Source of the DNA: Thermoanaerobaculia bacterium
GTDB lineage: Bacteria > Acidobacteriota > Thermoanaerobaculia > Multivoradales > UBA5704
Assembly: GCA_036002325.1 (NCBI GenBank)
Contig: DASYTJ010000038.1
Coordinates: 10,665 to 74,664 of the forward strand
DNA length: 64,000 nucleotides
Direction of reading: 5' to 3'
Both the position numbers and the translations under genes were made by a program. Every line of letters starts with the position of its first letter. Within the stretch, counting starts at the first letter, position 1. This document shows, in pieces, positions 9,867 to 55,916 of the stretch. The notes under the pieces are model-generated. The model did no database searches. It had not been told where the DNA came from and saw only the letters and a program-made list of their open reading frames with translations.

Positions 9867-9896
9867 GTCGATTCCTTCGCTAGAGACGGTCCGGAG

Positions 9897-39696: not shown

Positions 39697-41484
39697 ATGG
39701 GCCTGCTGAGGAGTCAGTTGGAAGTCACCGGCGCCGGATTATCACTACGACTCCCGAGCCGTGCTCTGCTGCTTGCCGTCTCGTTGCTGGCCATGGCCGC
39801 CGCGCCGGCCGGGCGCTGGTTCGAGGACGTGACCGCCCGCGCCGGCGTCGCCGCGAAGCACGGCAATCGCGTCTTCCACAATCCCTACGCCGAGATCATG
39901 GCGGGGTACACCGCCCTGGGCGCCGCCGCCGCCGTGGCGGACTTCGACGGCGACGGCTTCGAGGACCTCTTCGTCACCGACTCGTCTGAAACCGGCAAAA
40001 ACCACCTCTACCGCAACAACGGCGGCTTCACCTTTACCGACGTGGCGGCGAAGGCGGGCGTGGCCGGCGGCAACGACGCCGCCAACGCCTCGGCCGACGC
40101 CCTCTGGTTCGACTACGACAACGACGGCCGGCCGGATCTCTTCGTGGTCCGCTTCGGCCGCAGCCAGCTCTTCCACAACCTGGGCCAGGGGAGCTTCCGC
40201 GAGGTCACCCGCGAAGCCGGGCTGGACCGTTACGCCAACGCCATCACCGCCGCCGCCTTCGACTACGATCGCGACGGCGATCTCGACCTGTTCGTCGGCG
40301 GCTACTTCCGGCCGGTCGATATCTTTCATCCCGAGACGCCGCGCTTCTTTCCCGAGAGCTTCGAGACGGCCGAGAACGGCGGCGGCGTCACCTTGTGGCG
40401 CAACGACGGCCGGGGGCGTTTCACCGATGCGACGCGCGCTGCCGGCCTGGCGCTCTCCGGTTGGACCCTGGACCTCGGCCACGCCGACGCCGACGGGGAC
40501 GGCGACGACGATCTCTACGTGGCCTGCGACTTCGGCACCGACCGCTTCCTCCGCAACAACGGCGACGGCACGTTCAGCGACCGGACCCGCGAGGCCACCG
40601 GCATCGACACCAAGAAGGGGATGAACGCCGAGTGGGGAGATTACGACAACGACGGCCGGCTGGACGTCTACGTCACCAACATCACCGACGACTACATGCG
40701 CGAGGGGAACTTTCTCTGGCGCAACAACGGCATGAACGGCTCGGGCGAAGTGACGTTCTCCGACGTCGCGCGGGAGACCGGCACCCACGACACCGGCTGG
40801 GGCTGGGGCGCCAAGTTCTTCGACTATGACGACGACGGCTGGCTCGACCTGTACGTGGTCAACGGCTGGGTCTCGGCGGGCCCGGAAAGCTATGTGCCGG
40901 AGATCTTCGCGATGATCATTCGGCCGGACGTCGACCTCGCCGATGCGCGCAACTGGCCGCCCATCGGCGGCAAGAGCTTCTCCGGCTATCAAAAGAAGCG
41001 GCTCTTCCACAACGAGGGCGGCCTGTTCCGGGACGAGGCAGCGCGCCACGGTCTCGACTCGGCCCGCGACGGCCGCGGCATCGCCGTCGCCGACTTCGAC
41101 AACGATGGCCGCCTGGATCTGTTCGTGACCAACGCCAAGGCCGAGCCCTACCTCTATCGCAACGTCCGGCCCGCCGCGCACTGGGTGCAGTTCCTTCTCG
41201 AAGGCAGGCCATCGAGCCGCGACGCCGTGGGCGCGCAGTTGCGCGCCACCGCCGCCGGACGCTCGCAGCTCCGCTTCGTGGACGGCGGCAACGGCTTCGC
41301 CGGCCAGAGCAGCCGCCGCGTCCACTTCGGCCTCGGCGCCGCGGCGGCGGTAGATCGCCTCGAGGTGCGCTGGCCCTCGGGACTGCGCCAGATCTTCGAT
41401 AAAATCCCGGCGGACCGCACCTGGCGCATCGTCGAAGGTGAACCGGAATTGAAACCTTTTCAGGCCGTTGCCAGGAAACAATGA
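39697..41484 (+). CDS. CRTAC1-family protein (FG-GAP repeats + ASPIC/UnbV domain), copy 1
   Basis: Repeated DFDGDGxxDLFV FG-GAP motifs and a C-terminal ...RDAVGAQLRATAAGRSQLRFVDGGNGFAGQSS..HFGLG... ASPIC/UnbV signature. Confidence 0.8.
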   Translation: MGLLRSQLEVTGAGLSLRLPSRALLLAVSLLAMAAAPAGRWFEDVTARAGVAAKHGNRVFHNPYAEIMAGYTALGAAAAVADFDGDGFEDLFVTDSSETGKNHLYRNNGGFTFTDVAAKAGVAGGNDAANASADALWFDYDNDGRPDLFVVRFGRSQLFHNLGQGSFREVTREAGLDRYANAITAAAFDYDRDGDLDLFVGGYFRPVDIFHPETPRFFPESFETAENGGGVTLWRNDGRGRFTDATRAAGLALSGWTLDLGHADADGDGDDDLYVACDFGTDRFLRNNGDGTFSDRTREATGIDTKKGMNAEWGDYDNDGRLDVYVTNITDDYMREGNFLWRNNGMNGSGEVTFSDVARETGTHDTGWGWGAKFFDYDDDGWLDLYVVNGWVSAGPESYVPEIFAMIIRPDVDLADARNWPPIGGKSFSGYQKKRLFHNEGGLFRDEAARHGLDSARDGRGIAVADFDNDGRLDLFVTNAKAEPYLYRNVRPAAHWVQFLLEGRPSSRDAVGAQLRATAAGRSQLRFVDGGNGFAGQSSRRVHFGLGAAAAVDRLEVRWPSGLRQIFDKIPADRTWRIVEGEPELKPFQAVARKQ

Positions 41485-42221
41485 AACGTTTTTGGATCCC
41501 TTCGCTGCTCGCGCTCTGCCTCGGCTCCGCCGCCGTCGCGGGCTCGTTCGAGGAGGCGATGAAGGCCGTCGCCGCCGGCAACGACGCGGCGGCCTTGCAG
41601 CTCTTCGAAGCGGCGCTCGCGACGGATCCGGATAACCTGCAAGCTTCCAACGAGTATCGCAAGGCCGTCATCCGCACCGGCCAGTACGACCGGGCCATCG
41701 ACTTCTACGGCAAGCTCACCGCTGCTCAGCCTCAGGCCGCCTTCGCCTGGCTGAACTACGGCTACGCTTACGTGGACAAGATCCCGGCCGCCGGCTCGAT
41801 CACGCGGGTGATCCTGGCCAACAACTCCATCACCAACTTCTCCAAGTCGATCGAGATCAAACGCACCTGGATCGCACTTTATACGCGGGGCAACGCCTAT
41901 CTTTACTGGCCCAAGGTCTTCGGCCGCGCGCCGCTCGCCGTGGCGGACCTCGAGGAGGCGGTGGCGATCGCCCGCAAGGAACCGCAGCGGAAGAAGGTCT
42001 ACGTCCGCGCCTGGATCGCCCTCGGCGACGGTTACTTGAAGACGGACCAGCCGGAGAAGGCGAAGGCGGTCTGGCGCGAGGCGCAGCAGCTCTTCGGGAA
42101 CCAACCGCAGCTCCAGGAGCGGCTCTCTCGCGACGGCGAGGAGTTGGAAAAGTACGTCTACGACCAGCTCGACCCCAACCTGCGGGTGAACACCGATCTG
42201 GCGCCGTTGTGGGAGGAGTGA
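41481..42221 (+). CDS. secreted TPR-like repeat protein
   Basis: Signal peptide. Helical repeats with A/L/Y/G pattern (AWLNYGYAYV, ALYTRGNAYLYW). Confidence 0.55.
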   Translation: MKRFWIPSLLALCLGSAAVAGSFEEAMKAVAAGNDAAALQLFEAALATDPDNLQASNEYRKAVIRTGQYDRAIDFYGKLTAAQPQAAFAWLNYGYAYVDKIPAAGSITRVILANNSITNFSKSIEIKRTWIALYTRGNAYLYWPKVFGRAPLAVADLEEAVAIARKEPQRKKVYVRAWIALGDGYLKTDQPEKAKAVWREAQQLFGNQPQLQERLSRDGEELEKYVYDQLDPNLRVNTDLAPLWEE

Positions 42222-42346
42222 GGGTGCTGTCGGAAGAGCCTCGAAGGGGTGGCGGCAGCTCGGGGCGTTCTGGGGGGGCGCAGTCGAAAGGATCTTGCCG
42301 AGCTCGGGCCTCCTTTTTCGGCATAAAGGTTGTGAATCGTTCCCCC

Positions 42347-42385
42347 TCGCCCGTCAGGGAGAGGGGGCCAGGGGGTGAGGCTTCG
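42347..42385 (+). repeat. REP-like dispersed repeat, copy A (TCGCCCGTCAGGGAGAGGGGGCCAGGGGGTGAGGCTTCG)
   Basis: Core of 23 bp or more identical to 48891-48931 and, in reverse orientation, to 54129-54145 and 59241-59264. Confidence 0.7.
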
Positions 42386-42409
42386 AAGGGCATACCCCTC
42401 CTACTTTCT

Positions 42410-44146
42410 ATGCTCCTCCTGATCTGCACCTCCCTCTTCGCCCAGGACCCAGGACCCAAGACCCAGGACCCTCCCCCCGCCAGCCCCATCCGCTTCGAGG
42501 AGATCTCCGATGCCGCCGGCGCCCGCCTCGTCCATCACACCCGTACCTTCCGAGGGAAGCACGCCGACGTGCTCGGCATGTTCACTTCCGGCGGCGCCGC
42601 GGTGGCGGTGGGGGACTACGACGGCGACGGCGACGATGACCTGTTCGTCACCGACTCCGCGGTGGGACAACCCAACCACTTACTGCGCAACGAGCTGCGG
42701 CCTTCGGGCAAGCTGGTCTTCACCGACGTGGCGCGCGAGGCCGGGGTCGCTGGAGGAAACGACGAGCGCGCCATCGTCTCCGATGCCCTGTGGTTGGACG
42801 CCGACAACGACGGCCGGCGCGATCTGCTGGTGGCCCGCTTCGGCGCGCCGCTGCTGTATCGGAATCTGGGGCGGGGAAGGTTTCGCGAGATGGCGAAGGA
42901 GGCCGGCCTCACGAAGTTCGGCAACACCATCGCCGCCATCGCCTTCGACTACGACAACGACGGCCGGCTCGACCTGCTGTTCGGCAATTACTTCCAGCCG
43001 GTCGACCTGACCGAGCTGCCGACGCCGCACGTCCTGCCCAACAACCTCGACAACGCGGTCAACGGCGGCGGCGTCACGCTGTGGCGCAACGTCACCGCAC
43101 CGGGCTCCGGCGAGCTTCGCTTCGTCGAGACGACGGCGAAGGCCGGCCTCGCTCATCACACCGGCTGGACTCTCGATCTCGGCCACGGCGATCTCAACAA
43201 CGACGGCTGGCAGGACCTCTATCTCGCGGTCGACTACGGCACCGACCGCCTCTTCTTCAACAACGGCGGCGGCACCTTCCGTGACGCCACGAAGGAGGCT
43301 GTCGGGTTCGACTCGCGCAAAGGGATGAACGTCGACGTCGCGGATTACGATCGCGACGGCTGGCTCGACATCTACGTCACGAACATCACCGACGAATACA
43401 TGAAAGAATGCAACATGCTCTGGCACAACGACGGCGACGGCACCTTCACCGACCTGGCGAAGGAGACCGGCACCTGCAATACGCTTTGGGGCTGGGGCGC
43501 CAAGTTCGGCGACTTCGACGGCGACGGCTGGGAGGACCTCTTCGTGATGAACGGCTTGCGCTCGGCCGGCCCAGAGAACTACATTCCGGTCCTCTTCGAG
43601 ATGATCGTCACGCCGGGCATCGACTTCACCGACGTCAACAGCTATCCGCCGATCGGTGCGATGAGCTGGAGCGGATATCAGCGCAAGAAGCTCTTCCGCA
43701 ATCTCGGCACGCAGGCCTTCAAGGAGATGGCGGCCGCGGCTGGGGTCGATAACGACCGCGACGGCCGCGGCATCGGCATGGCCGACTTCGACGACGACGG
43801 CCGGCTCGACCTCTATCAGACCAGCGTCGATCAGCCCGCGCTTTTGTATCGCAACGTCTCCCCGGCGCGCCACTGGCTCGAGCTGAAGCTCATCGGCACG
43901 AAATCGAACCGCGACGCCATCGGCGCCCGAGCCACCTTACGGGTCGGCGGCGCGACCCTGATCCGCGAGGTCAACGGCGGCAACGGCTACGCCAGCCAGA
44001 GCACCGTACGTCTTCATTTCGGATTGGGAGCGGCGGCGAAGGTCGATGCCGTCGAGATCCGCTGGCCGAGCGGGCGTGTCGAGAAGGTAGCCGTGCCGGT
44101 GGACCGGATCACCACGATCAAGGAAGGAACGGGGGTGGTGAAATGA
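42410..44146 (+). CDS. CRTAC1-family protein (FG-GAP + ASPIC/UnbV), copy 2
   Basis: Same architecture as copy 1 (DYDGDGDDDLFVTD..., ...RDAIGARATLRVGGATLIREVNGGNGYASQS). Start at ATG 42410, after the REP element. The ORF-track start at 42209 overlaps the TPR gene and is rejected. Confidence 0.8.
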   Translation: MLLLICTSLFAQDPGPKTQDPPPASPIRFEEISDAAGARLVHHTRTFRGKHADVLGMFTSGGAAVAVGDYDGDGDDDLFVTDSAVGQPNHLLRNELRPSGKLVFTDVAREAGVAGGNDERAIVSDALWLDADNDGRRDLLVARFGAPLLYRNLGRGRFREMAKEAGLTKFGNTIAAIAFDYDNDGRLDLLFGNYFQPVDLTELPTPHVLPNNLDNAVNGGGVTLWRNVTAPGSGELRFVETTAKAGLAHHTGWTLDLGHGDLNNDGWQDLYLAVDYGTDRLFFNNGGGTFRDATKEAVGFDSRKGMNVDVADYDRDGWLDIYVTNITDEYMKECNMLWHNDGDGTFTDLAKETGTCNTLWGWGAKFGDFDGDGWEDLFVMNGLRSAGPENYIPVLFEMIVTPGIDFTDVNSYPPIGAMSWSGYQRKKLFRNLGTQAFKEMAAAAGVDNDRDGRGIGMADFDDDGRLDLYQTSVDQPALLYRNVSPARHWLELKLIGTKSNRDAIGARATLRVGGATLIREVNGGNGYASQSTVRLHFGLGAAAKVDAVEIRWPSGRVEKVAVPVDRITTIKEGTGVVK

Positions 44147-47100
44147 GGCCGGCCCTCACCCTTCTCGGGCTCCTCCTCATGGCTGCCGCGCCGCCGCGGA
44201 CACCTCCGAACGACGAGCTCCTCTGGCACCATCGCAACCTCGGCAAGGCGTTCTACGAGAACCCGGCGACGCAGTATCAGGCGGTGGACGAGCTCAAGGC
44301 GGCGCTGGATCTGTCTCCCGACTCCGTCCGCGAGCGGCTCAACTACGGCCTCGCTCTGCTCCGGGCGGGCAAGACGGCCGAAGGCATCGCCGAGTTGGAG
44401 AAGGTGCAGAGGCAGGACCCGTCGCTCCCCCATACCTGGTTCAATCTCGGCATCGCCTACAAGCGCGCCGCCGACTACGACCGCGCCACCGCGCAGTTCG
44501 AAAGGTTGGTCGCGCTGGTCCCCGACGAACCGGTGGCGCGCTACAACCTCGGGGTGCTCTACAAGCTCGCCGGCAAGGCCGACCTCGCGCTGCGCCATTT
44601 CGAGGAAGCGGAGCGGCTCGCTCCCCATTTCGTGGGCCCCCACTTCCAGCTCTTCAACGCCTACCGGTTCGCCGGCCGCGAGGCAGACTCGAAGCGCGAG
44701 CTGGCCATCTTCCAGGAGGTCCGCAAGCAGCAGGAGGGCGCCGCCGTGCCCGAAGACCTGGAATGGAGCCGCTATGCCGAGCTCTACGACGAGCCCGAGC
44801 CGGCGAGCCCCGTTGCCCCGACCGTGCCGCCGAAATGGGAGGCCCGCGAGCTGAAGACGGGCCTCGACCCTGGGACGGCGGTGCTCGCCGTGCTCGACGC
44901 CGAGGGTGACGGCCGGCCGGATCTCCTCGCCGCCTCGGCGCTCGGCGCGGCCCTGTTCCGGCAGGGTACGGACCCGGTCGAGGCGAGCGGCCTCGCCGAG
45001 ATCCGGGGAGTCACGGGCGCGGCTCTCGGCGACTTCGACAACGACGGCCTGGCGGATCTCTGTCTGATCGCGGGCGGCGGCGCGTCGCTGTGGCGCAACG
45101 CCGGCGGACGATTCGAAAAGGTTTCTGTTCTGTTTCCTGCCGGCAAGTTCCGCGACGCCGTCTGGCTCGACTTCGATCACGATTACGACCTCGATCTGAT
45201 CCTGCTCGGAGAGAGCGCCGCTCTGCTGCGCAACCAGGGGACCGCCGGCTTCCAGGACGAGACGCGCCGGTTTCCTTTCGTGACCGGCAACGCGCTCGGC
45301 GCCGCGGTGCTGCACGTCGTCTCCGACACGCAGGGGATGGACCTCGCCGTGGCCTACGCGGACCGGCCGGGAGTGATCTACCGCGACCGGCTGGGCGGCA
45401 GTTATGAGGCCGAGACCGTAGCGGCGCTGCCCGCCGGGGCGGCGCCGCTCATGGCGGTCGACTTCAACGGCGACGGCTGGACCGACCTCGCCGCGGGCGC
45501 CACGGTGCTGGTCAACGGGCAGGGGAAAGGGTGGACGGCGGAGAAGCCCACGTCCGCACCTCCGTTCGTGCCGGCCGATCTGGACAACCGGGGGACCGTC
45601 TCGCTCGTCGCGGCTCCCCAGGGCTTCGCCGCTACGGCATTGGCGGCCGCCGATTTCGACGCCGACGGCCGGGTGGACCTTGCGGCGGCGGGGAAGGACG
45701 GCTCACTGAGGCTCTTCCGCAACGCCACGGAGACCGCCAATCGCTGGCTGGCCGTGCGTCTCGAAGGGGTCAAGAACCTGAAGCTCGCGGCCGGCGCGGA
45801 GATCGAGGTCAAGGCCGGCAAGCTGTATCAGAAGCGCAGCTATCAGGGAGTGCCCCTGATCTTCGGCTTGGGGGCTCGGAACGAGGCGGACGCCGTCCGC
45901 ATCACCTGGCCCAACGGGCTGATCCAGAACGAGACGCGCCAGGCCGCCGGCAAGCTCGCCGCCGATCTTTCCACCTATAAAGAAGCCCCCCGCCTCTCCG
46001 GCTCCTGTCCGATGATCTTCACCTGGAACGGCGAGCGGTTCGAGTTCATCACCGACGTGCTGGGCGTCGCGCCGCTCGGCGCTTCGGCGGGCGACGGCGA
46101 GTACTTTCCGGTGGATCACGACGAGCACGTGCGCATCCCCGGCGAGGCCCTGGCCGCCGTCGACGGCCACTATGAGGTGCGGATCACCGAGGAGCTGCGC
46201 GAGGTGGCCTATCTCGACCAGGTGCGCCTGATCGCCGTCGATCACCCGGAGGCGACGGAGGTCTTCACCAACGACAAGTTCCAGAGCCCGCCGTATCCCG
46301 AGCTGCGGCTTTACGGGATGGAGCGACGAGTGCGGCCTCTGGCGGCCCGCGACTCGCAGGGCAGAGACGTGCGCGACCGGCTTCTCGCCCGCGACCGGCG
46401 TTACCCGGACGACTTCCGCCGCACCTCCTCCGGCATTGCCGAGATGCACCATCTGGATCTCGATTTCGGCCGCGTTGCGCCGGACGGCCGCGCCCTGCTC
46501 GTGCTCTCCGGATGGGTGGACTGGGCCGACGGCAGCACCTTCCTCGGCGCCGCCCAGGAGGCGGGCGGCGGGCTGGTGATGCCGCGCCTGCAGGTCAAGG
46601 ACGCCGCCGGCCGCTGGGTGACGGTGCTCGAAGACATGGGCATTCCGGCCGGCAAGCCCAAAACGATCGTGGTGGACCTCACCGGCAAGTTCCTCTCCGA
46701 CTCTCGCGAGGTCCGCATCGAGACCAATCTCTGCGTGTATTGGGACGAGATCTTCCTGGCGGAAACGGCTGGGGAGACGCCGATGGAGCTGACCCCCATG
46801 GCGCCCATGACGGGCAACCTGCGCTTCCGCGGTTTCTCGCGGCCGGTGATCCATCCCGAGCGCAAGCAGCCGGAGAGCTTCGATTACCAGACGTGGATGC
46901 CGCTCTCGATGTGGAACCCCACGCCGGGGCTCTATACCCGCTATGGCGACGTGCGGCCGCTGCTCGCCGAGGTGGACGACCGCATGGTGGTCATGGGCTC
47001 TGGCGACGAGATCCGCCTGCGTTTCGACGCGCGTGCCCTGCCGGCCCTGCCCGCCGGCTGGCGGCGCGATTTCCTGCTCAAGGTCGACGGCTGGGCCAAG

Positions 47101-47298
47101 GACGCCGACGCCAATACGGCCTTCTCGCAGAGTGTCGAGCCGCTGCCGTTCCACGCCATGAGCCGCTATCCCTATCCCGAGAGGGAGCGCTTCCCGGACG
47201 ACGAGGCGCACCGGAAGTACCGGGAGGAGTACAACACCCGGCCGGCGCTGCGGCTGATCCGGCCGTTGCAGCAGCCCGGCGATAAATCGCCGGGCTAA
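44143..47298 (+). CDS. large secreted protein: N-terminal TPR + FG-GAP repeats + ASPIC/UnbV domain + ~450 aa C-terminal domain of unknown function
   Basis: TPR helices (LNYGLALLRAGK...WFNLGIAYKRAADYDRA), FG-GAP (DFDNDGLADL, VDFNGDGWTDL, DFDADGRVDL), ASPIC/UnbV (WLAVRLEGVKNLKLAAGAEIEVKAGKLYQKRSYQG...GLG), then an unassigned tail from SGSCPMIFTWNGERFEF onward. Confidence 0.7.
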   Translation: MRPALTLLGLLLMAAAPPRTPPNDELLWHHRNLGKAFYENPATQYQAVDELKAALDLSPDSVRERLNYGLALLRAGKTAEGIAELEKVQRQDPSLPHTWFNLGIAYKRAADYDRATAQFERLVALVPDEPVARYNLGVLYKLAGKADLALRHFEEAERLAPHFVGPHFQLFNAYRFAGREADSKRELAIFQEVRKQQEGAAVPEDLEWSRYAELYDEPEPASPVAPTVPPKWEARELKTGLDPGTAVLAVLDAEGDGRPDLLAASALGAALFRQGTDPVEASGLAEIRGVTGAALGDFDNDGLADLCLIAGGGASLWRNAGGRFEKVSVLFPAGKFRDAVWLDFDHDYDLDLILLGESAALLRNQGTAGFQDETRRFPFVTGNALGAAVLHVVSDTQGMDLAVAYADRPGVIYRDRLGGSYEAETVAALPAGAAPLMAVDFNGDGWTDLAAGATVLVNGQGKGWTAEKPTSAPPFVPADLDNRGTVSLVAAPQGFAATALAAADFDADGRVDLAAAGKDGSLRLFRNATETANRWLAVRLEGVKNLKLAAGAEIEVKAGKLYQKRSYQGVPLIFGLGARNEADAVRITWPNGLIQNETRQAAGKLAADLSTYKEAPRLSGSCPMIFTWNGERFEFITDVLGVAPLGASAGDGEYFPVDHDEHVRIPGEALAAVDGHYEVRITEELREVAYLDQVRLIAVDHPEATEVFTNDKFQSPPYPELRLYGMERRVRPLAARDSQGRDVRDRLLARDRRYPDDFRRTSSGIAEMHHLDLDFGRVAPDGRALLVLSGWVDWADGSTFLGAAQEAGGGLVMPRLQVKDAAGRWVTVLEDMGIPAGKPKTIVVDLTGKFLSDSREVRIETNLCVYWDEIFLAETAGETPMELTPMAPMTGNLRFRGFSRPVIHPERKQPESFDYQTWMPLSMWNPTPGLYTRYGDVRPLLAEVDDRMVVMGSGDEIRLRFDARALPALPAGWRRDFLLKVDGWAKDADANTAFSQSVEPLPFHAMSRYPYPERERFPDDEAHRKYREEYNTRPALRLIRPLQQPGDKSPG

Positions 47299-47358: not shown

Positions 47359-48408
47359 GTGCGGCGAGACGCAGGAGGTGCGGTCGTGGCCATCAGAGTC
47401 GTCAGTTACGAAGAGATCCGCCGGCTGGTGCGGCTGGAAGACGTCATCGCGCCGGTCCGCGAATCGTTCAAGAGCTACTCGCTGGGCCGGGCCAACATCC
47501 CGCCGGTCCAGCATCTCGAGATGCCCGCTCGCCAGGGCGGGGCGCTGCACATCAAGACCGGGCACGTCGAGCCGCTCGACTTCTGCCTGGTGAAGGTCGC
47601 CTCGACGTTCCCCGAGAATACGCGGCGGGTGCCTCCCAGCCCGTCGATCAACGGCGCGATCATGGTGTTCAGCGCCGTCGACGGCGAGCCCCTCGCGCTG
47701 CTCGAGGACCGGGCCTGGATCACTCAGGCGCGGACCGGAGGCGCCGGCGCCGTGGCGGCCGAGCTGCTGGCGCGCCCCGGCGCCGCGACGCTCGGAGTGA
47801 TCGGCTCCGGCACGCAGGCCCGGCTGCAGGCCACTGCGATCCTCCACGTCCTGCCGGATCTCCGTAAGCTCGTGACCTGGGGCCGGTCGGCGGAGAAGGC
47901 CCGGCAGTTCGCCGCGGACATGAGCGCCTCCTATCCCTTCCTCGCCGTCGAGGCCGTGGAGAATCCCGAGCAAGCCGTCCGCGCCGCGGACATTCTCGTG
48001 ACGACCACGTATGCCGCGGAGCCCATCGTGCGCGGCGAGTGGCTCCCCGAGGGGGTGCTGGTCATCGGCATGGGCGCGGACTCCATCCACAAGCGGGAGC
48101 TCGATCCCGGGACCCTTCTGCGGGCTGACAAGGTGTACGTCGACAGCCGCTCGCAGAACGAGATCCTGGCCGAGATCGGTCACGGCCTCCGTGAAGGCCT
48201 GTTCGACGCCGGCCGCATCGACGGCGAGATCGGCGATCTCCTGGCGGACGGCGTCGCCGCGGGCCGGATGTCGGACCGCGAGCGCATCGTCTGCAAGCTG
48301 ACCGGCGTGGCCGTGCAGGAGGTCTTCGTCTGCGACTACCTGCTGCGCAGCCTCGGGATCACCGGCCGCAGGCGCGAGACGGCGGAGGTTCTGGCGGCGG
48401 CGTCGTAG
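47359..48408 (+). CDS. ornithine cyclodeaminase/mu-crystallin family protein
   Basis: Rossmann region GVIGSGTQARLQATAIL and the overall OCD_Mu_crystallin pattern. Confidence 0.8.
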   Translation: MRRDAGGAVVAIRVVSYEEIRRLVRLEDVIAPVRESFKSYSLGRANIPPVQHLEMPARQGGALHIKTGHVEPLDFCLVKVASTFPENTRRVPPSPSINGAIMVFSAVDGEPLALLEDRAWITQARTGGAGAVAAELLARPGAATLGVIGSGTQARLQATAILHVLPDLRKLVTWGRSAEKARQFAADMSASYPFLAVEAVENPEQAVRAADILVTTTYAAEPIVRGEWLPEGVLVIGMGADSIHKRELDPGTLLRADKVYVDSRSQNEILAEIGHGLREGLFDAGRIDGEIGDLLADGVAAGRMSDRERIVCKLTGVAVQEVFVCDYLLRSLGITGRRRETAEVLAAAS

Positions 48409-48521
48409 GCAAAACGCTACATAGTTCAAGGCCCCGACACCTCAACGGAGGAGCTGTGCTAGCCGTACCTTTGTACGGCATCTCGTAAACGCGACGGACG
48501 TCACCGATGGAGGTGAGAAAA

Positions 48522-48761
48522 ATGAAATTGCTACGGCTGGTGGGACTGGTTTCGCTCTTCGCCGTCTGTTTGATGCTGATGCCATCCGCAGGCGTCGAGA
48601 CCGCTCGTGCCGCCGCTACTGGTTATGGGTGTTATGCGGATTGTTGCGGCGGAGGGTGGGCTATGGGCGTTGGCGACACCGTCGACCAAGCATACCAAAC
48701 CCTCGACTGTGGAAGATACGGTGTGTGCGGGACGATCGAGTGTGAGCAGATAAATTATTAG
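48522..48761 (+). CDS. small Sec-secreted cysteine-rich peptide (79 aa precursor, ~50 aa mature, 7 Cys)
   Basis: Perfect SD GGAGGTGA 7 nt upstream of ATG 48522. Signal peptide MKLLRLVGLVSLFAVCLMLMPSAGVETARA|AATG. Mature part GYGCYADCCGGGWAMGVGDTVDQAYQTLDCGRYGVCGTIECEQINY. Low-GC gene in a high-GC genome. Confidence 0.5.
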   Translation: MKLLRLVGLVSLFAVCLMLMPSAGVETARAAATGYGCYADCCGGGWAMGVGDTVDQAYQTLDCGRYGVCGTIECEQINY

Positions 48762-48890
48762 CGCCCCCACTTCATGATTCATCTTGACGTGACCGGGTGA
48801 GACCTGCTGGACGGGCTTGATCCCCAGGAGCGGGCCCGTCCCCCGGTTCCGGGACCGCTCCTGATGCTTCGCTCCGCGCCAGGGTAGGCG

Positions 48891-48931
48891 GCTCGCCCGT
48901 CAGGGAGAGGGGGACAGGGGGTGAGGCTTCG
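48891..48931 (+). repeat. REP-like dispersed repeat, copy B, immediately 3' of Omp85-like paralogue 1
   Basis: GCTCGCCCGTCAGGGAGAGGGGGACAGGGGGTGAGGCTTCG. One mismatch to copy A over 39 bp. Confidence 0.7.
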
Positions 48932-48949
48932 CGCGCAGACGGCCAGGCT

Positions 48950-50734
48950 TCAGAACGTATCCCTGGTCGTCACCAGCCACTGCACCCGTTCGATCGAGCG
49001 GTTGGCGTCCAGGGGAAACGCGACGTCGAGGTGCAGGACGGCGCCGCGGGAGGAGCGGCTGGAGCCGAGGCGCAGGCCGAGGCCGGCGTCCTTGAGAATC
49101 CGGCGCTCCTGGGCGGCGAGCTTGGGGTCCCGCTGCGACCGGGGGTTCACGAACCAGGCCTGGCCGGCGTCGAAGAAGACGGCGGCACCCAGGTGGACGA
49201 GGTGGAAGAGCTCGCGGTCGCTGAAGAACCGCTGCTCGAGCGTGAGCAGGACGCGGCGGTCGCCGGCCTGGTAGCGGAGGGGATAGCCGCGCAGCCCGCT
49301 GTCGCCGCCGAGCAGGAGCTGGTCTTCGCCGTCGAGGCGGTGGGCTAGGTCGGCGCCGAGCGCGGCGTAGAAGACCTGGTCACCGAAGTCGCGCGCGTAC
49401 CAGCGCACCTTGCCGCCGGCCACCAGGTCCTCGGCGTCGCCGTCCGCCCAGCGGGTGGAGCCGCCGAGCTGGGCGAGGACGAGCTGGCGCCGGGTGGGCC
49501 GCCAGCCGGTGGAGGCCGCGCTCTGGACGATCCAGCGCTCGCCGTCGCCGCCGAAGGCCGGGGAGGACAAGCCGAGGAGGAGGTTGAACTGCCGGCCGAG
49601 GTTGAGGTCCTCCGAGCGCTGGATGCGGTCGAGATCTCGCTCCACCACGAAGCGGTCCTGCACCGACTCGAAGCTGATCCAGGGGTAGGCGAGCCGGCGG
49701 TCGGGCGGCAGGGTAACCAGCTTCGGAATGGAGGAGGAGGCCTTGAAGGCAGACCGCGAGAACTTCGACGACAGCGTGAACGCGTCGTCCGACCAGGTGA
49801 AGCCGAAGCGCAGCCGCCGCGCCGCGCCCTCCCGGAGGCCGCTCGAGAGGCCGCCGTAGATCTCCAGGAACTCGTGCTCATGGTTGAAGCCGACGATGGC
49901 CTTGCCGGCGGTATAGAGCTGCTCGAGGCGGTCGTCGCGGAACGCGCGCACGCCCGCCGCCCAGCGCGAGCTGAGCGAGTAGAAGGGCCGCTCCAGCTCG
50001 AAGCGCTCCCGCCCGCCGTCGCTGTTGTCGGCATAGGAGAGGGTCAGCCGGACGCGGCTCCCGAGCAGGTTGGGATCGCGGTAGCGGACGAGGTTCGAGG
50101 TGCGGTCCACCGTCCCGATGCGCGAGATGGAGAGCTCTTTACCGGTGCCCAGGACGTTGGTGTCCTCCACCCACAGGCTCGTGTTGTTGGCGCCGCCCGA
50201 GCGGCTGAAGCTGGCGCCGCCCTCCAGCGTCCAGACGTCGCGGGTGGTCACCTCCACGTCCACCTTGCCGTCCTCGCGCAGCACCGGACGGATGTCCACG
50301 TCGTAGAGATAGTCGTTCTGCCGCAGCAGGCGCGCGGACTCGGCGATCAGCTCGGGAGAGAACACGTCGCCCGGCTTGAAGAGGAGCTGCCGCTCGATCA
50401 CCCCCGGGCGGGTGGAGCGGTGCACCTGGTTCGCCAGCCGGAACAGCCGGCCGTCTTCGCCGGGCTTCTCCGGATCAAAGAGGTCCTGGGCGACGACGCG
50501 CACCTCGCCGATGACGCTCCCCGGCGGAATCGCCGGAGCGCCCCGGACCTCGATGCCGGTAGCCAGGACCGGGGGCCGCGAAGCCCGCAGCCAGGAGGAG
50601 AGATTCGGGGACGGCTGCGCCGCTCCTGGATCGGGATGGGCCAGGAACAAGGCGCCGACAAGCGCACTGGCGGCCGTCAGCCGGCAGACACGGTCAAAGA
50701 CTGGCGGGCGGCGGACGCCGCGGCTCGAATCCAT
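48950..50734 (-). CDS. Omp85-superfamily outer-membrane beta-barrel protein with a single POTRA-like domain (BamA/TamA/TpsB-like), paralogue 1
   Basis: Signal peptide, POTRA-like segment (GEVRVVAQDLFDPEKPGEDGRLFRLANQVH...FKPGDVFSPELIAESARLLRQNDYLYDVDIRPV), barrel with LRGYPLRY loop-6-like motif, C-terminal ...TTRDTF. Confidence 0.6.
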   Translation of the reverse strand: MDSSRGVRRPPVFDRVCRLTAASALVGALFLAHPDPGAAQPSPNLSSWLRASRPPVLATGIEVRGAPAIPPGSVIGEVRVVAQDLFDPEKPGEDGRLFRLANQVHRSTRPGVIERQLLFKPGDVFSPELIAESARLLRQNDYLYDVDIRPVLREDGKVDVEVTTRDVWTLEGGASFSRSGGANNTSLWVEDTNVLGTGKELSISRIGTVDRTSNLVRYRDPNLLGSRVRLTLSYADNSDGGRERFELERPFYSLSSRWAAGVRAFRDDRLEQLYTAGKAIVGFNHEHEFLEIYGGLSSGLREGAARRLRFGFTWSDDAFTLSSKFSRSAFKASSSIPKLVTLPPDRRLAYPWISFESVQDRFVVERDLDRIQRSEDLNLGRQFNLLLGLSSPAFGGDGERWIVQSAASTGWRPTRRQLVLAQLGGSTRWADGDAEDLVAGGKVRWYARDFGDQVFYAALGADLAHRLDGEDQLLLGGDSGLRGYPLRYQAGDRRVLLTLEQRFFSDRELFHLVHLGAAVFFDAGQAWFVNPRSQRDPKLAAQERRILKDAGLGLRLGSSRSSRGAVLHLDVAFPLDANRSIERVQWLVTTRDTF

Positions 50735-51119
50735 GCTGGGAACTCCTTGAACGACCGTCAGTTCGGTGGATCATAACCCAAGGCGCCCCGAAAGTATCGT
50801 GTAGCAGCATCTTTCAGGGAGCGGCAAAGTCGGCTGAGGTGGTCTCTTCTTCAGAAGGCACCTCTGTGTGGACGCTCCGGGGGGCGGGCAGCCATGTTGG
50901 GCTGCCTCGACATGGAATCTCCTTGTTCCGACGATTTTGGCGGAGCCTTCGGCTTGTTTCAGGGAGCGGCGACTGGCCTGACGGTCAGGGTCCTCCGACA
51001 CACGCGGCGGCGGGTCAGGATGAGGGTCCTGCGAGCCCATGCCGGGTCTCGGCACCGCAAGCTGAATCGCACCGCCGCGGGCTCGCGGGCCGGTTTTTTG
51101 TGTTCGTGGAGCGCCACCG

Positions 51120-51745
51120 TCAGATGACGGGACGATTTCTCAGATGACGGAGCGATACCGCCAGATGAGGGCGTGATTTCTGAGATGGCGGAGCCGCCCC
51201 GTCATCTGACGGAGCGCTTTCTGATCCTGGGGAGCGCCGCCCCATCCTGCGGCGTTGTTTCTGAGATGAGGGAGCGCCGCCGTCAGATAAGGGCGCGGAT
51301 TCTGAGATAACGGAGCGGCTCCCCCATCTGACGGAGCGCTTTCTCATCCTGGGGAGCGCCGCCGTCATCCTGGGGCGCCGTTTCTCAGATCAGGGAACCC
51401 CGCCGTCAGATGAGGGCGCGGTTTCTGAGATGACGGAGCGGCTCCCCCATCTGACGGAGCGCCTTCTTATCCTGGGGAGCGCCGCCGTCATCCTGGGGCG
51501 CCGTTCCTCAAATGGGGGAACCCCGCCGTCAGATGGGGGCGCGGTTTCTGAGATGACGGAGCGGCTCCCTCATCGGCGGAGCGCCTTCTCATCCTGGGGA
51601 ACGCCGCCGTCATCCTGGGGCGCCGTTTCTCAGATGGGGGAGTCCCGCCATCAGATGGGGGCGCGGTTTCTGAGATGATGGAGCGGCTCCCTCATCTGGC
51701 GGAGCGCCTTCTCATCCTGGGGAACGCCGCCGTCATCTGACGTAG
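51120..51745. repeat. tandem repeat array: ~5 units of ~120 bp, each built from alternating inverted copies of a GTCAGATGGGGG(C)GCG-like motif
   Basis: Unit starts at about 51304, 51424, 51544 and 51664 (85-95% identical), with degenerate copies from 51120. Both strands are interrupted by stops. Confidence 0.8.
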
Positions 51746-52000
51746 CGAGGCCGTCACTTGACGGAAAGGCACCACAAGGCTGTGGCGCGAGGCTGCGAGC
51801 TGCTGCGGTGCAAGCCGCGAAGCCTTATTGAGGAACCATTTAGAGCGACGAGAAGCTTGGGCGCCGGCACCCGAGCTCAGCCGCGGGCGCTCTAGCCTCC
51901 GTCGTAGCCCGCCTCGACGAGCGCCGCGAGCTTCGTTGAGCTTTAGCCTGCATGGCAGTACTGTCTTGGCGGCCGCGGCTCATGGAGGCAAGGAACACCT

Positions 52001-52402: not shown

Positions 52403-54085
52403 TCAGGGCCGCGCCCACCGCAGGCTCGCTCCCTCTCTCAGCCGCAGCTCCGGCGAGTAGGTGACCCAGCCGGCCGGCGAGACATATTCGATCCGCAAGG
52501 GCAGCACGTCGAGTCGGCCCACTTTGAAGCCGGCCCGCCGCGGCATGTCGTAGGCTTCGGCGCCGTCGGCCAGGACGAAGCGGTACCGGCCATCGTCGTA
52601 CGGTCCGAGATTCCAGAAGAGATCCTCGCCGGCGAAGCGGAAGGAGGCTTTCAGCGGAGCGCGGCGAATCGACGAGCAGTGCCGAGCCCGCAGAGCCGGA
52701 ATCGATGGCGCGAGGTCGACGATGCGATGCGAGGCCTCGTCATAACCCCAGACCCGCCCGAGCCGGCCGCGATGAACGCAAAGGTACAGGTCGTCCTGAA
52801 ACCAGCCCCCGCCCGGGGGACGATGAAAGACCGCTTCCTTCATCCACGCCAGCTCTCTGAGCGAGGCCGCCAGGGTGAGCGGATGCCGCAGAACGTCCTC
52901 TTTCCTCATTTCCAGGAGGAAGCGGTTCTCGGCGCTCATCCGTTCGACCCTGGCGAAGCGGACGGCCCAATCCTGGCGGTTCAGCCACAGGCCCGAAGCG
53001 CAGGCCGCAAGGGCGAGGGCCGCACCGGTCCGACGCCTCGCCGCGGCCAGCGTCCGGCAGCCGGCCGCGAAGGCGACCGCCACGACGAGCCACGCCGGCA
53101 GCGCGTAGCGCGGCTCCATCCGCGTCGAGACGGGCAGCGCCGGCAGCGCGGCGAGGATCAGCGCGAAGGCGAACAGGGCGGTTGCCTTCCAGCCTCGCAT
53201 CAGGAGAAGCGCCAGGATTCCCACGGCGAGAACGGCGCCGAAGAGGACCGCCGCCGGCGAGAGCCGTCCGCCCACGATCTGCGCAGCGATCTTGCCCGGC
53301 AGCTCCAGGGCGAGGCGCGGCAGGCTGGAGCCGCTCGCGATGAAACCGTAGCCGCCGAACGGCGTGCCCAGCACCGCGTAACGGAGACCCAGGTAGAGAA
53401 GGGCGGCCGCCGCGTGCGGCATCGCGAGACGCGATCGCTGCCGGAAACCGGACTGCGGGGCTCCCGCCGGAACCGGCAGGAAAGGAAGGACCGCCACGAA
53501 AGGTACCGCGATCTCCTTCGCCATGCAGGCGGCGAAGTAGAGCAGCGCCGAGAGCCACGTCCACCTCCAGGCTCGTCCCCCATTTCGATACAGCGCCGCG
53601 GCCCAGGCCGCCACGGCGAGCGCGGAGAGGAGGAGGGTCTCGACGTAGTGGTGCGCCAAAACGAGCGCCAGGGAAGCGGTGACCGGGCCGATAAGGAAGA
53701 GCCACGCTCCGGCCGCGGACCAGGAGCGCCGCAGCCAGAGGCGCAGGACGGCATAGAGCGCCGGCGGGCACAGAGACAGTGACAGGAGTTGATGCACGTA
53801 GAAGGGGCGGGGCTCGAGGCCGAACAGCCAGCGGTCCAGATCCAGCGAGAGGAAGAGCAGCGGCGTCAGCAGCCTGGAGGGGAAGTCGCGGTAGCCCGCC
53901 GAGTCGAAGATGTACCAGAGCGGGCGGTGGGTGAGCTGAAACCGCAGGTGAAAGAAATCGTCACCCGTCCACCAGAGCCGGAGGACGGAGCCGTACAGCA
54001 GCCACGCCGCGCCGGCCAGGGCCAGCAGGACGGCCCCTTCCGCCGCGGCCCGCCGAGCTTTGGCTTTGGGATGTTGCGCGAACAC
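52403..54085 (-). CDS. polytopic membrane protein, putative GT-C glycosyltransferase (ArnT/PMT/GT39-like)
   Basis: ~11-13 TM helices in the first 400 aa with a DDxxH-like WWTGDDFFHLRF near TM1 and a soluble C-terminal domain. Family call is tentative. Confidence 0.45.
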   Translation of the reverse strand: MFAQHPKAKARRAAAEGAVLLALAGAAWLLYGSVLRLWWTGDDFFHLRFQLTHRPLWYIFDSAGYRDFPSRLLTPLLFLSLDLDRWLFGLEPRPFYVHQLLSLSLCPPALYAVLRLWLRRSWSAAGAWLFLIGPVTASLALVLAHHYVETLLLSALAVAAWAAALYRNGGRAWRWTWLSALLYFAACMAKEIAVPFVAVLPFLPVPAGAPQSGFRQRSRLAMPHAAAALLYLGLRYAVLGTPFGGYGFIASGSSLPRLALELPGKIAAQIVGGRLSPAAVLFGAVLAVGILALLLMRGWKATALFAFALILAALPALPVSTRMEPRYALPAWLVVAVAFAAGCRTLAAARRRTGAALALAACASGLWLNRQDWAVRFARVERMSAENRFLLEMRKEDVLRHPLTLAASLRELAWMKEAVFHRPPGGGWFQDDLYLCVHRGRLGRVWGYDEASHRIVDLAPSIPALRARHCSSIRRAPLKASFRFAGEDLFWNLGPYDDGRYRFVLADGAEAYDMPRRAGFKVGRLDVLPLRIEYVSPAGWVTYSPELRLREGASLRWARP

Positions 54086-54128: not shown

Positions 54129-54160
54129 CCTCACCCCCTGGCCCCTTCTACGTGAGGCTT
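54129..54160 (-). repeat. REP-like dispersed repeat, copy C (reverse orientation), immediately 3' of Omp85-like paralogue 2; forms a CCTCAC...GTGAGG hairpin
   Basis: CCTCACCCCCTGGCCCC is the reverse complement of the GGGGCCAGGGGGTGAGG core. Confidence 0.65.
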
Positions 54161-54206: not shown

Positions 54207-55916
54207 TCAGAACGTATCCTTGGTCGACACCAGCCACTGCAGGCTCTTGACGTCGCGGCCGCCGTCGAGCGGGAAGGCGAGGTCGAGGTGGACCATGGTG
54301 CCGCGGGCGGAGGAGCGGCTGGAGCCGATGCGCAGGCCGATGCCGACGTCCCGCAGCAGCTCCCGGTCAGCCGCGAGCTTGCCGTCGACATCCTGGAACC
54401 AGGCCGAGCCGGCGTCGAAGAAGACTGCGGCGCCCAGATGCGCGAGATGGAAGAGCTCCCGGTTGCTGAAGAACCGCTGCTCGACGGTGAACAGCACGCG
54501 GTTGTCGCCTTGCAGGTAGCGCAGAGGGTAGCCGCGCAGACCGGTGTCACCTCCGAGCAGGAGCTGGTTCTCAGGGTCGAGATCGTGCGCCACGTCCCAT
54601 CCCAGGCTGACGTAGAAGAGATTGTTGCCGAAGTCGCGGATGTAGTAACGGAGACGGCCGCCCACCAGCAGGTTCTCGGCCACGCTGCGGTTCATCCGCG
54701 AGCCGCCCTGCAACGACGCCAGCACGAGCTGGCGCGGGCTCAGCCGCCAGCCGACGGAGCCGCCGACGTCGGCGATCAGGCGGTTGGCGTCGCCGCCGAA
54801 GACGGGGGAGGACCAGCCGAGGCGCAGATGGTACTGCTGCCCCAGGTTCACGTCTTCGGTCCGCTCGAGGCGGTCGAGGTCGCGGACGGTGAAGTAGCCG
54901 TCGTTGACGAACTCGTAGCTCAGCCAGGGATAGGCCAGGGTGCGGTCCGCCGGTATCAGCGACGGAGGCTCGAAACCCTCGGCGGTCGAGAAGCGGTCTC
55001 TCTCATAGGTGAAGCCGGTGCGCCAGCGGTGGGTCGAGCGATTGGCAAGGCCGGGCGAGAGACCGGCGTAGACCTCGAAGGTGTCCTGCCGGTGCTGGAA
55101 CCGGTCGAAGACGTGGCCGCGGTCGTAGAGGGGATCCACCCGGTCGTCCAGGTTCGCCGACAGCCCCAACGCCCAGCGCGTGTCGAGAGAGTAGAACGGC
55201 CGTTCCAGCAGCAATCTCGCGACGGCGCCGTCGCTGTTGGCGGAGTAGGCGGTGTCGAGCCGGCCGTGAGTTCCGAAGAGGTTCGGGTCCCGGTACTCGA
55301 TAAGGTTGGCCGTGCGGTCGACCGAGGTCTGGTGGGATACCGAGATGGCTTTGCCGGTGCCGAGGAAGTTGATGTCCTCGACGTCGAAGTGGACGGTATT
55401 GGTGCCGCCCGACCGGCGGAAGCCGACTCCCCCTTGCAGGGTCCAGACGTCGCGGGTGACGACTTCGAGGTCCACCTCGCCCTCGCCAGTCGGTACCGGG
55501 CGAATCCTCGCGTCGTAGAGGTAGGGATTCTTCCGCAGGATCCTCTCGGACTCCGCCGCTTGCTCCTCGGAGTACTCGTCGCCGGGCCTGAGGAGCACCT
55601 GGCGCTCGATCACCTCCGGCCGCGTGACGAAGTGGAAGCGGTCCGCCAGCCGGAAGAGGAGCTTGTCCTCCCCGGGCTCTTCGAGATCGAAGATGTTCTC
55701 CGTGACGACGTGGATCTGCCGCACTTTGGGCGGCTCAGAGGTGGCGGGTTCCTGGACCGGCAGCGTCTCGAGGCTGGCGTCCGGCGGCGCCACCTGCTGG
55801 GCCGGTGCCGGCTGTGCGGGAATCAGCGTGAGACCGAGAAGGAAGGGACAAAACGACGAGATGCGACGGCTGCGGCGGGTCGGCGACATGACGAACGGCT
55901 CCTGTCCTCGCCGCAT
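54207..55916 (-). CDS. Omp85-superfamily outer-membrane protein, paralogue 2
   Basis: Collinear with paralogue 1 (IHVVTENIFDLEEPGEDKLLFRLADRFHFVTRPEVIERQVLLRPGDEYSEEQAAESERILRKNPYLYDARIRPV...; C-terminal ...STKDTF). The 3' flank CAGAACGTATCC(C/T)TGGTCG shared with paralogue 1 is visible at DNA level. Confidence 0.6.
   Translation of the reverse strand: MRRGQEPFVMSPTRRSRRISSFCPFLLGLTLIPAQPAPAQQVAPPDASLETLPVQEPATSEPPKVRQIHVVTENIFDLEEPGEDKLLFRLADRFHFVTRPEVIERQVLLRPGDEYSEEQAAESERILRKNPYLYDARIRPVPTGEGEVDLEVVTRDVWTLQGGVGFRRSGGTNTVHFDVEDINFLGTGKAISVSHQTSVDRTANLIEYRDPNLFGTHGRLDTAYSANSDGAVARLLLERPFYSLDTRWALGLSANLDDRVDPLYDRGHVFDRFQHRQDTFEVYAGLSPGLANRSTHRWRTGFTYERDRFSTAEGFEPPSLIPADRTLAYPWLSYEFVNDGYFTVRDLDRLERTEDVNLGQQYHLRLGWSSPVFGGDANRLIADVGGSVGWRLSPRQLVLASLQGGSRMNRSVAENLLVGGRLRYYIRDFGNNLFYVSLGWDVAHDLDPENQLLLGGDTGLRGYPLRYLQGDNRVLFTVEQRFFSNRELFHLAHLGAAVFFDAGSAWFQDVDGKLAADRELLRDVGIGLRIGSSRSSARGTMVHLDLAFPLDGGRDVKSLQWLVSTKDTF

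Follow-up and report, generated by a model that had tools for sequence, protein, structure and literature searches.

In a stretch of 64,000 nt from a Thermoanaerobaculia bacterium (contig DASYTJ010000038.1 of assembly GCA_036002325.1, positions 10,665 to 74,664), hereafter the window, we analysed a short open reading frame (ORF) at 48522-48761 on the forward strand, which is a genuine and conserved gene, well beyond what chance would produce. Its best explanation, which we hold tentatively, is that of a monocistronic gene for an acidic mini-protein that is exported by the Sec pathway, locked by three disulfides and employed as a binder or inhibitor in the cell envelope. Judged by the records of its copies, the product belongs to an unnamed family known from soil metagenomes, of which two members have a taxonomic placement, in Acidobacteriota of Thermoanaerobaculia type. 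The gene and the two parts of its product are the following (homologous loci and proteins are indicated below by L and P numbers, respectively).

48522-48761, forward strand: coding sequence of the 79-aa precursor MKLLRLVGLVSLFAVCLMLMPSAGVETARAAATGYGCYADCCGGGWAMGVGDTVDQAYQTLDCGRYGVCGTIECEQINY, stop codon included, supported by the ORF and by 18 clusters of homologues
48522-48611, forward strand: putative Sec signal peptide (signal peptidase I type) of 30 aa, read by inspection, with a conserved A-x-A
48612-48758, forward strand: predicted mature domain of 49 aa, AATGYGC...EQINY, from the alignment and AlphaFold2

A word-indexed search of 5.8 billion proteins returned seven relatives, and profile searches extended the family to 18 clusters, all 76-93 aa in length, without any Pfam domain or telling name among them. 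When 1.84 billion cluster representatives were scanned exhaustively with HMMER, three clusters only were found, all of this same family. The gene is present in two genome records, namely one Acidobacteriota and one Thermoanaerobaculia metagenome-assembled genome, and the remaining copies come from metagenome contigs of soil, rhizosphere and farmland. No member was found on the viral contigs searched and no paralogue in the window, in which the gene is single-copy. The profile search proposed in a preliminary description of this locus, made from the sequence letters and their ORFs, yielded a family, yet not a named one.

The codon-substitution figures were derived from a codon alignment of 13 loci. 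The ratio of nonsynonymous to synonymous differences (pN/pS) was 0.52 in the sense frame vs 1.03 in the in-register antisense frame, and the mean pairwise difference at codon positions 1, 2 and 3 was 0.27, 0.21 and 0.40, respectively; the indels among homologues are all whole codons. Most homologues also have an open in-register antisense frame; such open frames are commonplace in GC-rich DNA, and the substitution pattern opposes coding on that strand. A search of Rfam with the region 48300-49000 gave no match.

As start codon we considered the ATG at 48522, preceded by a strong Shine-Dalgarno (SD) sequence, GGAGGTGA, at 48509-48516, with a spacer of 5 nt (8 nt if counted from GGAGG); the SD had been recognised already in the preliminary description, with a 7-nt spacer that has to be corrected. 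An alternative in-frame ATG at 48507, giving 84 codons, sits 2 nt ahead of this SD and so cannot use it, and every homologue begins at the equivalent of 48522. The N-terminus MK(L/I/W)LR is common to all homologues.

The GC content is 55.6% in the locus (48410-48790) and 56.7% in the ORF, vs 69-71% in the adjoining genes, and just 0.5% of the 380-bp segments of the whole 64 kb are below 56%; the dip noticed at the outset is thus real, though less deep than the value of about 50% then given. The GC content at third codon positions (GC3) is 61% in the ORF vs 89-93% in the three adjoining genes. Five of the seven Cys codons are TGT, which has a background of 0.4 per 1000 in 36 neighbouring genes, and the other rare codons are ATA, CTA, AGA, ACT, CCA and CAA; altogether, 12 of the 79 codons come from classes making up 2.1% of the background. 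Of the rare codons reported earlier, TTA and ATT do not occur in the ORF. A low GC3 marks the whole family (58-68% in most members and 74-81% in three, in hosts with 61-74% GC), hence the interpretation of the low GC as a sign of recent foreign origin is only partly right.

The window contains a second compositional outlier, the gene at 29976-32852 on the forward strand for a 958-aa fn3 / PhoD_N / purple-acid-phosphatase-N protein, with a GC content of 59.7% and a GC3 of 0.78 vs about 0.90 in its neighbours. The lowest-GC 380-bp segment of the entire 64 kb begins at 29851.

The N-terminal part of the precursor reads as a Sec signal peptide, with n-region MKLLR, h-region LVGLVSLFAVCLMLM and c-region PSAGVETARA, the last ending in an A-x-A motif. 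On inspection we found a positively charged n-region, a hydrophobic h-region within the usual 10-15 residues, small residues at -3 and -1 and no twin-arginine motif, as expected for Sec export and cleavage by signal peptidase I. Importantly for this assignment, the charged n-region, the hydrophobic h-region and the A-x-A are kept in the large majority of members, and the cleavage motif (ARA, ASA or AGA; A-x-A or S/G-x-A) falls at one alignment column in nearly all of them. There is good support, therefore, for the 30 N-terminal residues as a Sec signal peptide, probably cut after ETARA by signal peptidase I, as the preliminary description had also read them. The predicted junction is ETARA|AATGYGC and the mature part has 49 aa; the mature sequence given previously lacked its first three residues (AAT).

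The seven Cys formerly counted in the mature peptide, and with them the odd number, were not borne out: the mature part has six, and the seventh of the precursor (Cys16) lies inside the h-region of the signal peptide and is not conserved. It is part of an FAVC that is missing from 7/20 members and has Val at -1, and the lipobox pattern [LVI][ASTVI][GAS]C does not occur in the window protein. A lipobox-like SLFTAC does occur in the distant members P0017 and P0018; after it comes an acidic linker of about 20 residues, which has low confidence in AlphaFold2, and these two members have four Cys only. This lipoprotein-type signal points to the cell envelope as the place where the family would work.

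The six mature Cys are C7, C11, C12, C33, C39 and C44. The mature part is 49-55 aa long across the family, and the spacing C-x3-CC-x20/21-C-x5/6-C-x4-C is found in 17/20 sequences; P0009 has six Cys with a slightly different spacing, and in P0017 and P0018 the equivalents of C12 and C39 are jointly absent. The other invariant or nearly invariant residues are a G-D/S-T/S-V-D-E/Q-A-W/Y-Q block and an I-E-C near the C-terminus. The mature peptides are all strongly acidic, with 4-10 Asp+Glu vs 0-2 Lys+Arg each; for that of the window the net charge at pH 7 is -5.3, and it contains ten Gly and six aromatic residues. In most homologues, an N-x-S/T sequon stands just before the fourth Cys (QNLSC, QNVTC, QNTSC); it is lost in the window protein (QTLDC; 48699-48710) and in P0001 (QTLNC).

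The mature part was modelled by AlphaFold2 from an alignment of 10 sequences with a mean predicted local distance difference test (pLDDT) of 90.9 and a predicted template modelling score (pTM) of 0.66. The predicted elements are strands at 3-11 and 16-21, a helix at 24-29 and a strand at 43-48, i.e. a beta-hairpin, a helix and a beta-strand, in which the helix is Cys-free and the C-x3-C lies within strand 1. For the four-Cys domain of P0017 the same beta-beta-alpha-beta topology was predicted, with a pLDDT of 85-89. There is good support for six Cys that would form three disulfides locking a compact fold. Since C12 and C39 are lost together in the four-Cys relatives, we propose a C12-C39 disulfide; the pairs C7-C44 and C11-C33 are a guess from the antiparallel register of the strands.

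No known family could be assigned, in agreement with the preliminary description. Precisely, Pfam and NCBIfam gave no match even at E ≤ 10 for the window protein and 12 family members, and a sequence-profile search of the PDB gave noise only (top, bovine beta-defensin 12, E = 4.2). Foldseek with the pLDDT-91 model found nothing usable in the PDB (best E 3.5) or in BFVD (best E 0.6, to uncharacterised phage proteins). What does stand from that description is the general assignment, a small gene for a Sec-type exported and disulfide-rich peptide, which the reading of the sequence supports.

The selective constraint is uneven along the precursor. By region, pN/pS was 0.21 in the helix block (with a pS of 0.63), 0.33 in strand 3, 0.36 in the C33-C39 loop and 0.44-0.48 in the signal peptide; it was 1.08 in the segment between strands 1 and 2 (b1-b2 loop) and 0.82 in the C-terminal tail. 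A structural role for the helix block (G-D-T-V-D-x-A-x-Q) and the Cys scaffold has good support, and the b1-b2 hairpin loop and the C-terminal tail, which appear to vary freely, are likely the contact surface. For the closest pairs, the nonsynonymous to synonymous rate ratio (omega) was 1.0-1.4 in the mature region vs 0.1-0.5 in the signal peptide. Between the window and L006 the nucleotide identity is 97.8% in the signal-peptide part and 98.5% in a 3′ hairpin with its tail (see below), vs 77.4% in the mature part, a mosaic with a Fisher p = 6e-7. The synonymous divergence of this pair is likewise greater in the mature part, and for this reason recombination between conserved flanks is as likely an explanation as positive selection.

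The coding sequence is enclosed by conserved DNA, which we divided in the following features.

48440-48521, forward strand: conserved 5′ leader, homologous to L005 from 48440
48762-48824, forward strand: window-specific spacer, by which the hairpin lies about 58 nt further from the stop codon
48825-48863, forward strand: family-specific GC-rich stem-loop CAGGAGCGGGCCCG...CGGGACCGCUCCUG, a 14-nt inverted repeat with 93% complementarity
48864-48885, forward strand: short conserved tail following the hairpin, ATGCTTCGCTCCGCGCCAGGGT, with which the conserved module ends on its 3′ side, common to the closest relatives

The leader contains a first box, GTACGGCATCTCG, a small hairpin at 48462-48479, a second box, ACGCGACGGACGTCACC, and the SD at 48509-48516; SD and ATG are conserved across the homologous loci. 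For L006, L007, L008 and L011 the homology of the leader begins at 48488, despite the differing upstream genes, and for L005, whose protein is 95% identical, the upstream DNA beyond 48440 nonetheless differs. The leader hairpin varies by locus, being CCGTAC/GTACGG in the window and GAGGC/GCCTC in L008, L011 and L005; the L005 leader has both hairpin segments, and a 48-nt stretch of it is missing from the window.

The promoter and terminator consensus scan of the window gave no sigma-70 promoter and no canonical terminator. A sigma-70 or sigma-54 promoter in the conserved upstream box was considered and rejected, given the poor hexamers of the window and of L005 and a GG/GC spacing that deviates by one. 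In the branch of L013 and L024 a canonical TTGACA-N17/18-TAGCAT promoter is found at the equivalent place ahead of the gene, and in L016 and L023 the upstream gene is closed by a textbook intrinsic terminator; it follows from these two observations that the gene would be transcribed on its own. In L016, three direct repeats TTGAAAGCGAyC lie at 9884-9925, between the terminator of the upstream gene and the conserved leader, and could be an operator-like site.

On the 3′ side, the stem core GGAGCGG... is 65 nt past the stop codon in the window, where there is a local insertion, vs 6-20 nt in eight other loci. The stem-loop occurs in 9 loci, and its arms are 93% and 97% identical pairwise vs 60% at third positions of the coding sequence; the left-arm changes are uncompensated. 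Its folding energy as RNA is -26.7 kcal/mol in the window and from -25 to -33 in the homologues. It occurs once per locus, beside the mini-protein gene only, and is unique in the window. We considered it most likely a terminator or an mRNA 3′-end hairpin, although one without U tract. The window positions 48818-48885 are 98.5% identical to L006 798-864; homology stops there and the downstream genes differ.

The 3′ hairpin was also considered as a repetitive extragenic palindromic (REP) element and rejected as such, because of its single occurrence per locus and only at this gene. Distinct from it, the window has a REP-like element, CGCCCGTCAGGGAGAGGGGGnCAGGGGGTGAGGCTTCG, in at least 3 copies with 93-97% identity, located as follows.

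48892-48931: REP-like element
42346-42385: REP-like element
59246-59274, reverse strand: REP-like element

Shorter REP-like fragments are at 54129-54145 and 59579-59595. The position of the gene between an ornithine cyclodeaminase-family (OCD) gene and a REP copy was thus correctly described, except that the element directly downstream is the hairpin of the family and not the REP. An integron gene cassette was rejected as well: the 3′ hairpin has no RYYYAAC/GTTRRRY cores, the neighbours are housekeeping genes, and there is neither an array nor an integrase.

The neighbours of the gene change from locus to locus. In the window they are the OCD gene (47359-48408) and an Omp85-like gene. Elsewhere, argH precedes the gene in L001, L004 and L012; an unknown 102-aa gene is upstream in L006 and L007, with a Maf-like gene downstream in L006; RibD_C is upstream in L008 and L009, and TMEM175 downstream in L008 and L011. 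L010 has a MazE-like gene, L016 an unknown 962-aa gene and MOSC, L017-L020 AAA_14/DUF4143, L021 and L022 a helix-turn-helix gene, and L024 DUF1501. The 14 homologous loci with examinable flanks represent about nine distinct neighbourhoods, with no partner gene in common. Neither OCD nor the Omp85-like gene, whose co-occurrence was suggested earlier as a check, is such a common partner. A link to arginine and ornithine metabolism, considered for the OCD gene and for argH in L001, L004 and L012, was rejected since other contigs have unrelated neighbours. Possible operon partners of P0016, the two genes called directly downstream of it (L021 1981-2801 and L022 1279-2099), were rejected, as their products are repetitive LHRK/STA-rich strings that look like pseudo-ORFs from translated repeat DNA.

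No radical-SAM, LanM, YcaO, MNIO, DUF2063, ATP-binding cassette (ABC) or peptidase-containing ABC transporter (PCAT) or immunity-like gene recurs in the 14 neighbourhoods, and none of the same maturase, exporter or immunity types is among the 23 scanned proteins of the window between 24 and 62 kb. The absence of an adjacent modification enzyme, already remarked for this locus, accordingly held: no maturase-type gene is near, nor is there a local pathway for a ribosomally made, post-translationally modified peptide (RiPP) at the homologous loci examined. From its arrangement, we considered the locus a self-contained, monocistronic gene with its own leader, ribosome-binding site and 3′ stem-loop.

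According to the reading that we prefer, the precursor would be exported by Sec, and the cut of signal peptidase I after ETARA would free a 49-aa acidic mini-protein outside the cytoplasm, where its six Cys would form three disulfides locking the beta-hairpin, the short helix and the beta-strand. The mini-protein would then serve as a stable binding module in the periplasm or the cell envelope; its likeliest role would be that of a decoy or inhibitor acting on basic enzymes or toxins that come in from outside, comparable to PliC/MliC. Our confidence in this last step is low. PliC/MliC (COG3895) are acidic, disulfide-bonded and Sec-exported lysozyme inhibitors with soluble and lipoprotein members (PMC2267010), and PliC has a 24-aa Sec signal, a mature part of 90 aa, a pI of 4.76 and one disulfide (PMC2267010). 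The likeness consists of stand-alone genes, a Sec signal, an acidic and disulfide-stabilised mature protein, the occurrence of soluble and lipoprotein-type members and, if our reading is right, a defensive location in the envelope. We took PliC/MliC as the closest model of the mode of action, as a functional analogy only, as they differ in being an eight-stranded barrel of about 90 aa with one disulfide, vs 49 aa and three predicted disulfides here; there is no relation in sequence or fold, no Pfam match to the MliC domain (COG3895) having been found and the fold prediction giving three strands with one helix. Acidic proteins from stand-alone genes, stabilised by disulfides and present in a soluble as well as a lipid-anchored form, have the profile of periplasmic defence inhibitors, and this argues for an envelope-resident binder or inhibitor. 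The freely varying hairpin loop would fit a contact surface.

Several points weigh against this reading. The role of inhibitor or decoy would follow solely by analogy, from the charge, the soluble and lipoprotein forms and the variable loop, and the mini-protein, only half as large as the periplasmic inhibitors known, bears no similarity to these. The SLFTAC of P0017 and P0018 is atypical as a lipobox (Phe at -3 and Thr at -2), and the raised pN/pS of the b1-b2 loop may reflect relaxed constraint instead of an arms race. The AlphaFold2 models were built on alignments of 10 and 19 sequences only. Moreover, release to the medium may occur in a diderm via TolC, a type II secretion system or vesicles.

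Possible, though unlikely in our judgement, is a released antagonistic or toxin-like peptide acting on competitors or eukaryotic grazers, comparable to Sec-dependent bacteriocins or to the heat-stable enterotoxins STa and STb of E. coli. The product is small, Sec-exported and predicted to be disulfide-rich; its signal peptide is conserved and its mature region diverges fast (omega 1.0-1.4) in a mosaic pattern; and the gene has a patchy distribution, an atypical GC3 and changing neighbourhoods, all of which would suit such a peptide. STa and STb, with Sec precursors of about 70 aa whose disulfides are formed in the periplasm, show that diderms can release disulfide-rich peptides. They are plasmid- or transposon-borne virulence factors, released via TolC-type export; the mature STb has 48 aa, is basic and has two disulfides, and we know of no sequence similarity between STa or STb and the six-Cys family. 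The class II microcins and double-glycine bacteriocins are also small, Gly-rich peptides of diderms, often anionic and some with disulfides; both carry a leader of double-glycine type and come with a PCAT/ABC exporter of their own and an immunity gene next to them. In the present family, the N-terminus is of hydrophobic Sec type, and no conserved ABC transporter or immunity ORF is present in the examined loci.

Such a released peptide has to face, in addition, the strong negative charge, unlike that of membrane-active antimicrobial peptides or defensins, the absence of an immunity, ABC/PCAT exporter or lysis gene from every neighbourhood examined, a single-copy gene with no paralogues in the window, and the lipoprotein-type relatives, which would remain tethered. 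The bacterial cis-defensins (CS-alpha-beta; five classes) have the pattern C-x(2,18)-C-x3-C-x(2,12)-C-x(4,17)-C-x-C (PMC11561630), and one published bacterial cis-defensin comes from Acidobacteria (PMC11561630). The likeness to them extends to the small size, the signal peptide and, by prediction, the three disulfides and a mixed alpha/beta content. Nevertheless, the cis-defensin expression matches 0/20 family sequences, i.e. the pattern fails in all of them, and the topology of a C-x3-C helix before two strands and linked to a C-x-C strand does not appear in the AlphaFold2 model, where the predicted order is beta-beta-alpha-beta, the helix is Cys-free and the peptides are anionic. The defensin, knottin or antimicrobial character first attributed to the peptide was not upheld by these results, with the anionic charge and the lack of an immunity or export gene counting in the same direction; likewise, the lipoprotein-type signal of two distant members fits an envelope-resident protein better than the released toxin then envisaged. 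A released cationic antimicrobial is disfavoured by the charge, by the absence of immunity and export genes and by the lipoprotein-type relatives, and the peptide is probably not a released membrane-active antimicrobial.

There is a modest chance that something more unusual underlies the combination of a sequence-conserved hairpin, mosaic divergence, shifting neighbourhoods and persistently low GC3. In its full form, which we consider unlikely, a unit of about 0.45 kb (leader, ORF, hairpin and tail) would relocate or be exchanged among Thermoanaerobaculia genomes without a mobility gene, keep its own low GC3 and swap its mature core between the flanks; it would encode a previously unseen three-disulfide anionic fold, used in an arms race as an envelope immunity or inhibitor protein, and the hairpin, unusually conserved in sequence, would not be a plain terminator but a site at which recombination, the processing of RNA or the binding of a protein takes place.

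Among the known families compared, the bufferins are the most serious alternative, even if an improbable one. In this case, the gene would encode the stand-alone precursor of a bufferin- or captophorin-type RiPP, in which a remote MNIO (DUF692) with its DUF2063 partner would turn some of the Cys into thiooxazoles (4 Da lighter each) ahead of Sec export, for the buffering of copper or another metal in the periplasm. The Buf2 precursors have genes of about 240 bp and a Sec signal, and their six conserved Cys fall in a span of about 40 residues, with Gly after some of them (PMC12452194, PMC8692599); lipoproteins account for about 16% of the Buf2 members, and many of the precursor genes stand apart from the MNIO gene (PMC11626156, PMC12452194, PMC8692599). 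The likeness to Buf2 (BUF_6/12Cys, captophorins) thus includes the gene of about 240 bp, the Sec signal, the six Cys, the lipoprotein versions, the periplasmic location (predicted here) and the provenance from soil bacteria, and the general Buf2 arrangement, a Sec signal and six conserved Cys in a precursor of about 80 aa, is found here; these general traits, with the stand-alone gene, are shared by the two. Given that lone-precursor Buf2 genes exist, the missing neighbour MNIO/DUF2063 leaves room for a remote enzyme.

On the other side, 12 members gave no match at E ≤ 10 to DUF2282 (Pfam PF10048), which defines Buf1, and NCBIfam gave no bufferin match at that threshold, with the presence of a BufA2 model in the library unconfirmed and Buf2 compared by description only. 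The order precursor-MNIO (DUF692)-DUF2063 is absent from the homologous loci and from the 23 scanned proteins of the window, and neither MNIO nor DUF2063 appears in the 14 neighbourhoods or among the genes of the window between 24 and 62 kb. The Lys-Cys and Cys-Lys motifs reported for non-DUF2282 repeat-type precursors (PMC13097082) are missing from the mature peptides, in which there are 0-2 basic residues each and a K-C-K in P0009 only. The even number of Cys and the confidently predicted compact fold suit plain disulfides.

Less probable still is an exported signalling peptide, i.e. a pheromone or an envelope-stress signal for which the producing cells or their relatives would have a membrane receptor. 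A small exported product, an allele-like divergence of the mature part between conserved flanks and a monocistronic gene with its own regulatory region would be expected of it, but neither a receptor nor a histidine-kinase gene accompanies it consistently, the window has its sensor genes at distances above 10 kb and the other loci lack them, and a 49-aa protein with three disulfides is large for a diffusible signal in a diderm. Finally, we give hardly any credit to a non-coding locus (an ORF arisen by chance in an intergenic island of low GC, or else a structured RNA), for which the open in-register antisense frame and the conserved non-coding flanks could be cited, against the codon-position pattern and pN/pS, which favour the sense frame, the invariant Cys, the indels in multiples of three, the conserved SD and ATG, the lack of an Rfam match and the high confidence of AlphaFold2.

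Other features were observed in the surroundings of the gene. At 39697-47298 on the forward strand, directly upstream of the OCD gene, FG-GAP/ASPIC-UnbV (CRTAC1-like) genes are interleaved with tetratricopeptide repeat (TPR) genes, with products of 595 aa, 246 aa (TPR), 645 aa and 1051 aa (TPR+FG-GAP+UnbV). Two divergent genes for outer-membrane proteins of Omp85/POTRA type are within 7 kb, at 48950-50734 and 54207-55916, both on the reverse strand, and between them lies an unannotated gene for 560 aa (52403-54085). A tandem array at 51108-51747 has a 41-nt unit, a higher-order period of 123 nt and about 5 copies with 90% identity; its translation gives repeated pseudo-ORFs (MTAALPRMRKRS...).

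As regards its significance, the gene adds a new family to a familiar class, that of the small proteins exported by Sec and rich in disulfides; no new mechanism is shown, and the finding touches no long-standing open question. The conserved flanks, the diverging core, the changing neighbourhoods and the low GC3 make it a tractable case of the spread of a short gene in high-GC genomes. The protein is short, confidently predicted and, by prediction, locked by disulfides, so that it should be easy to synthesise or express for direct tests of inhibition, metal binding and antagonism. Acidobacteriota are abundant in soil, and hardly anything is known of their envelope defence or interbacterial interactions. 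If our reading is true, the poorly charted small exported proteins of this phylum would gain a family so far unannotated, whose small fold may be new.

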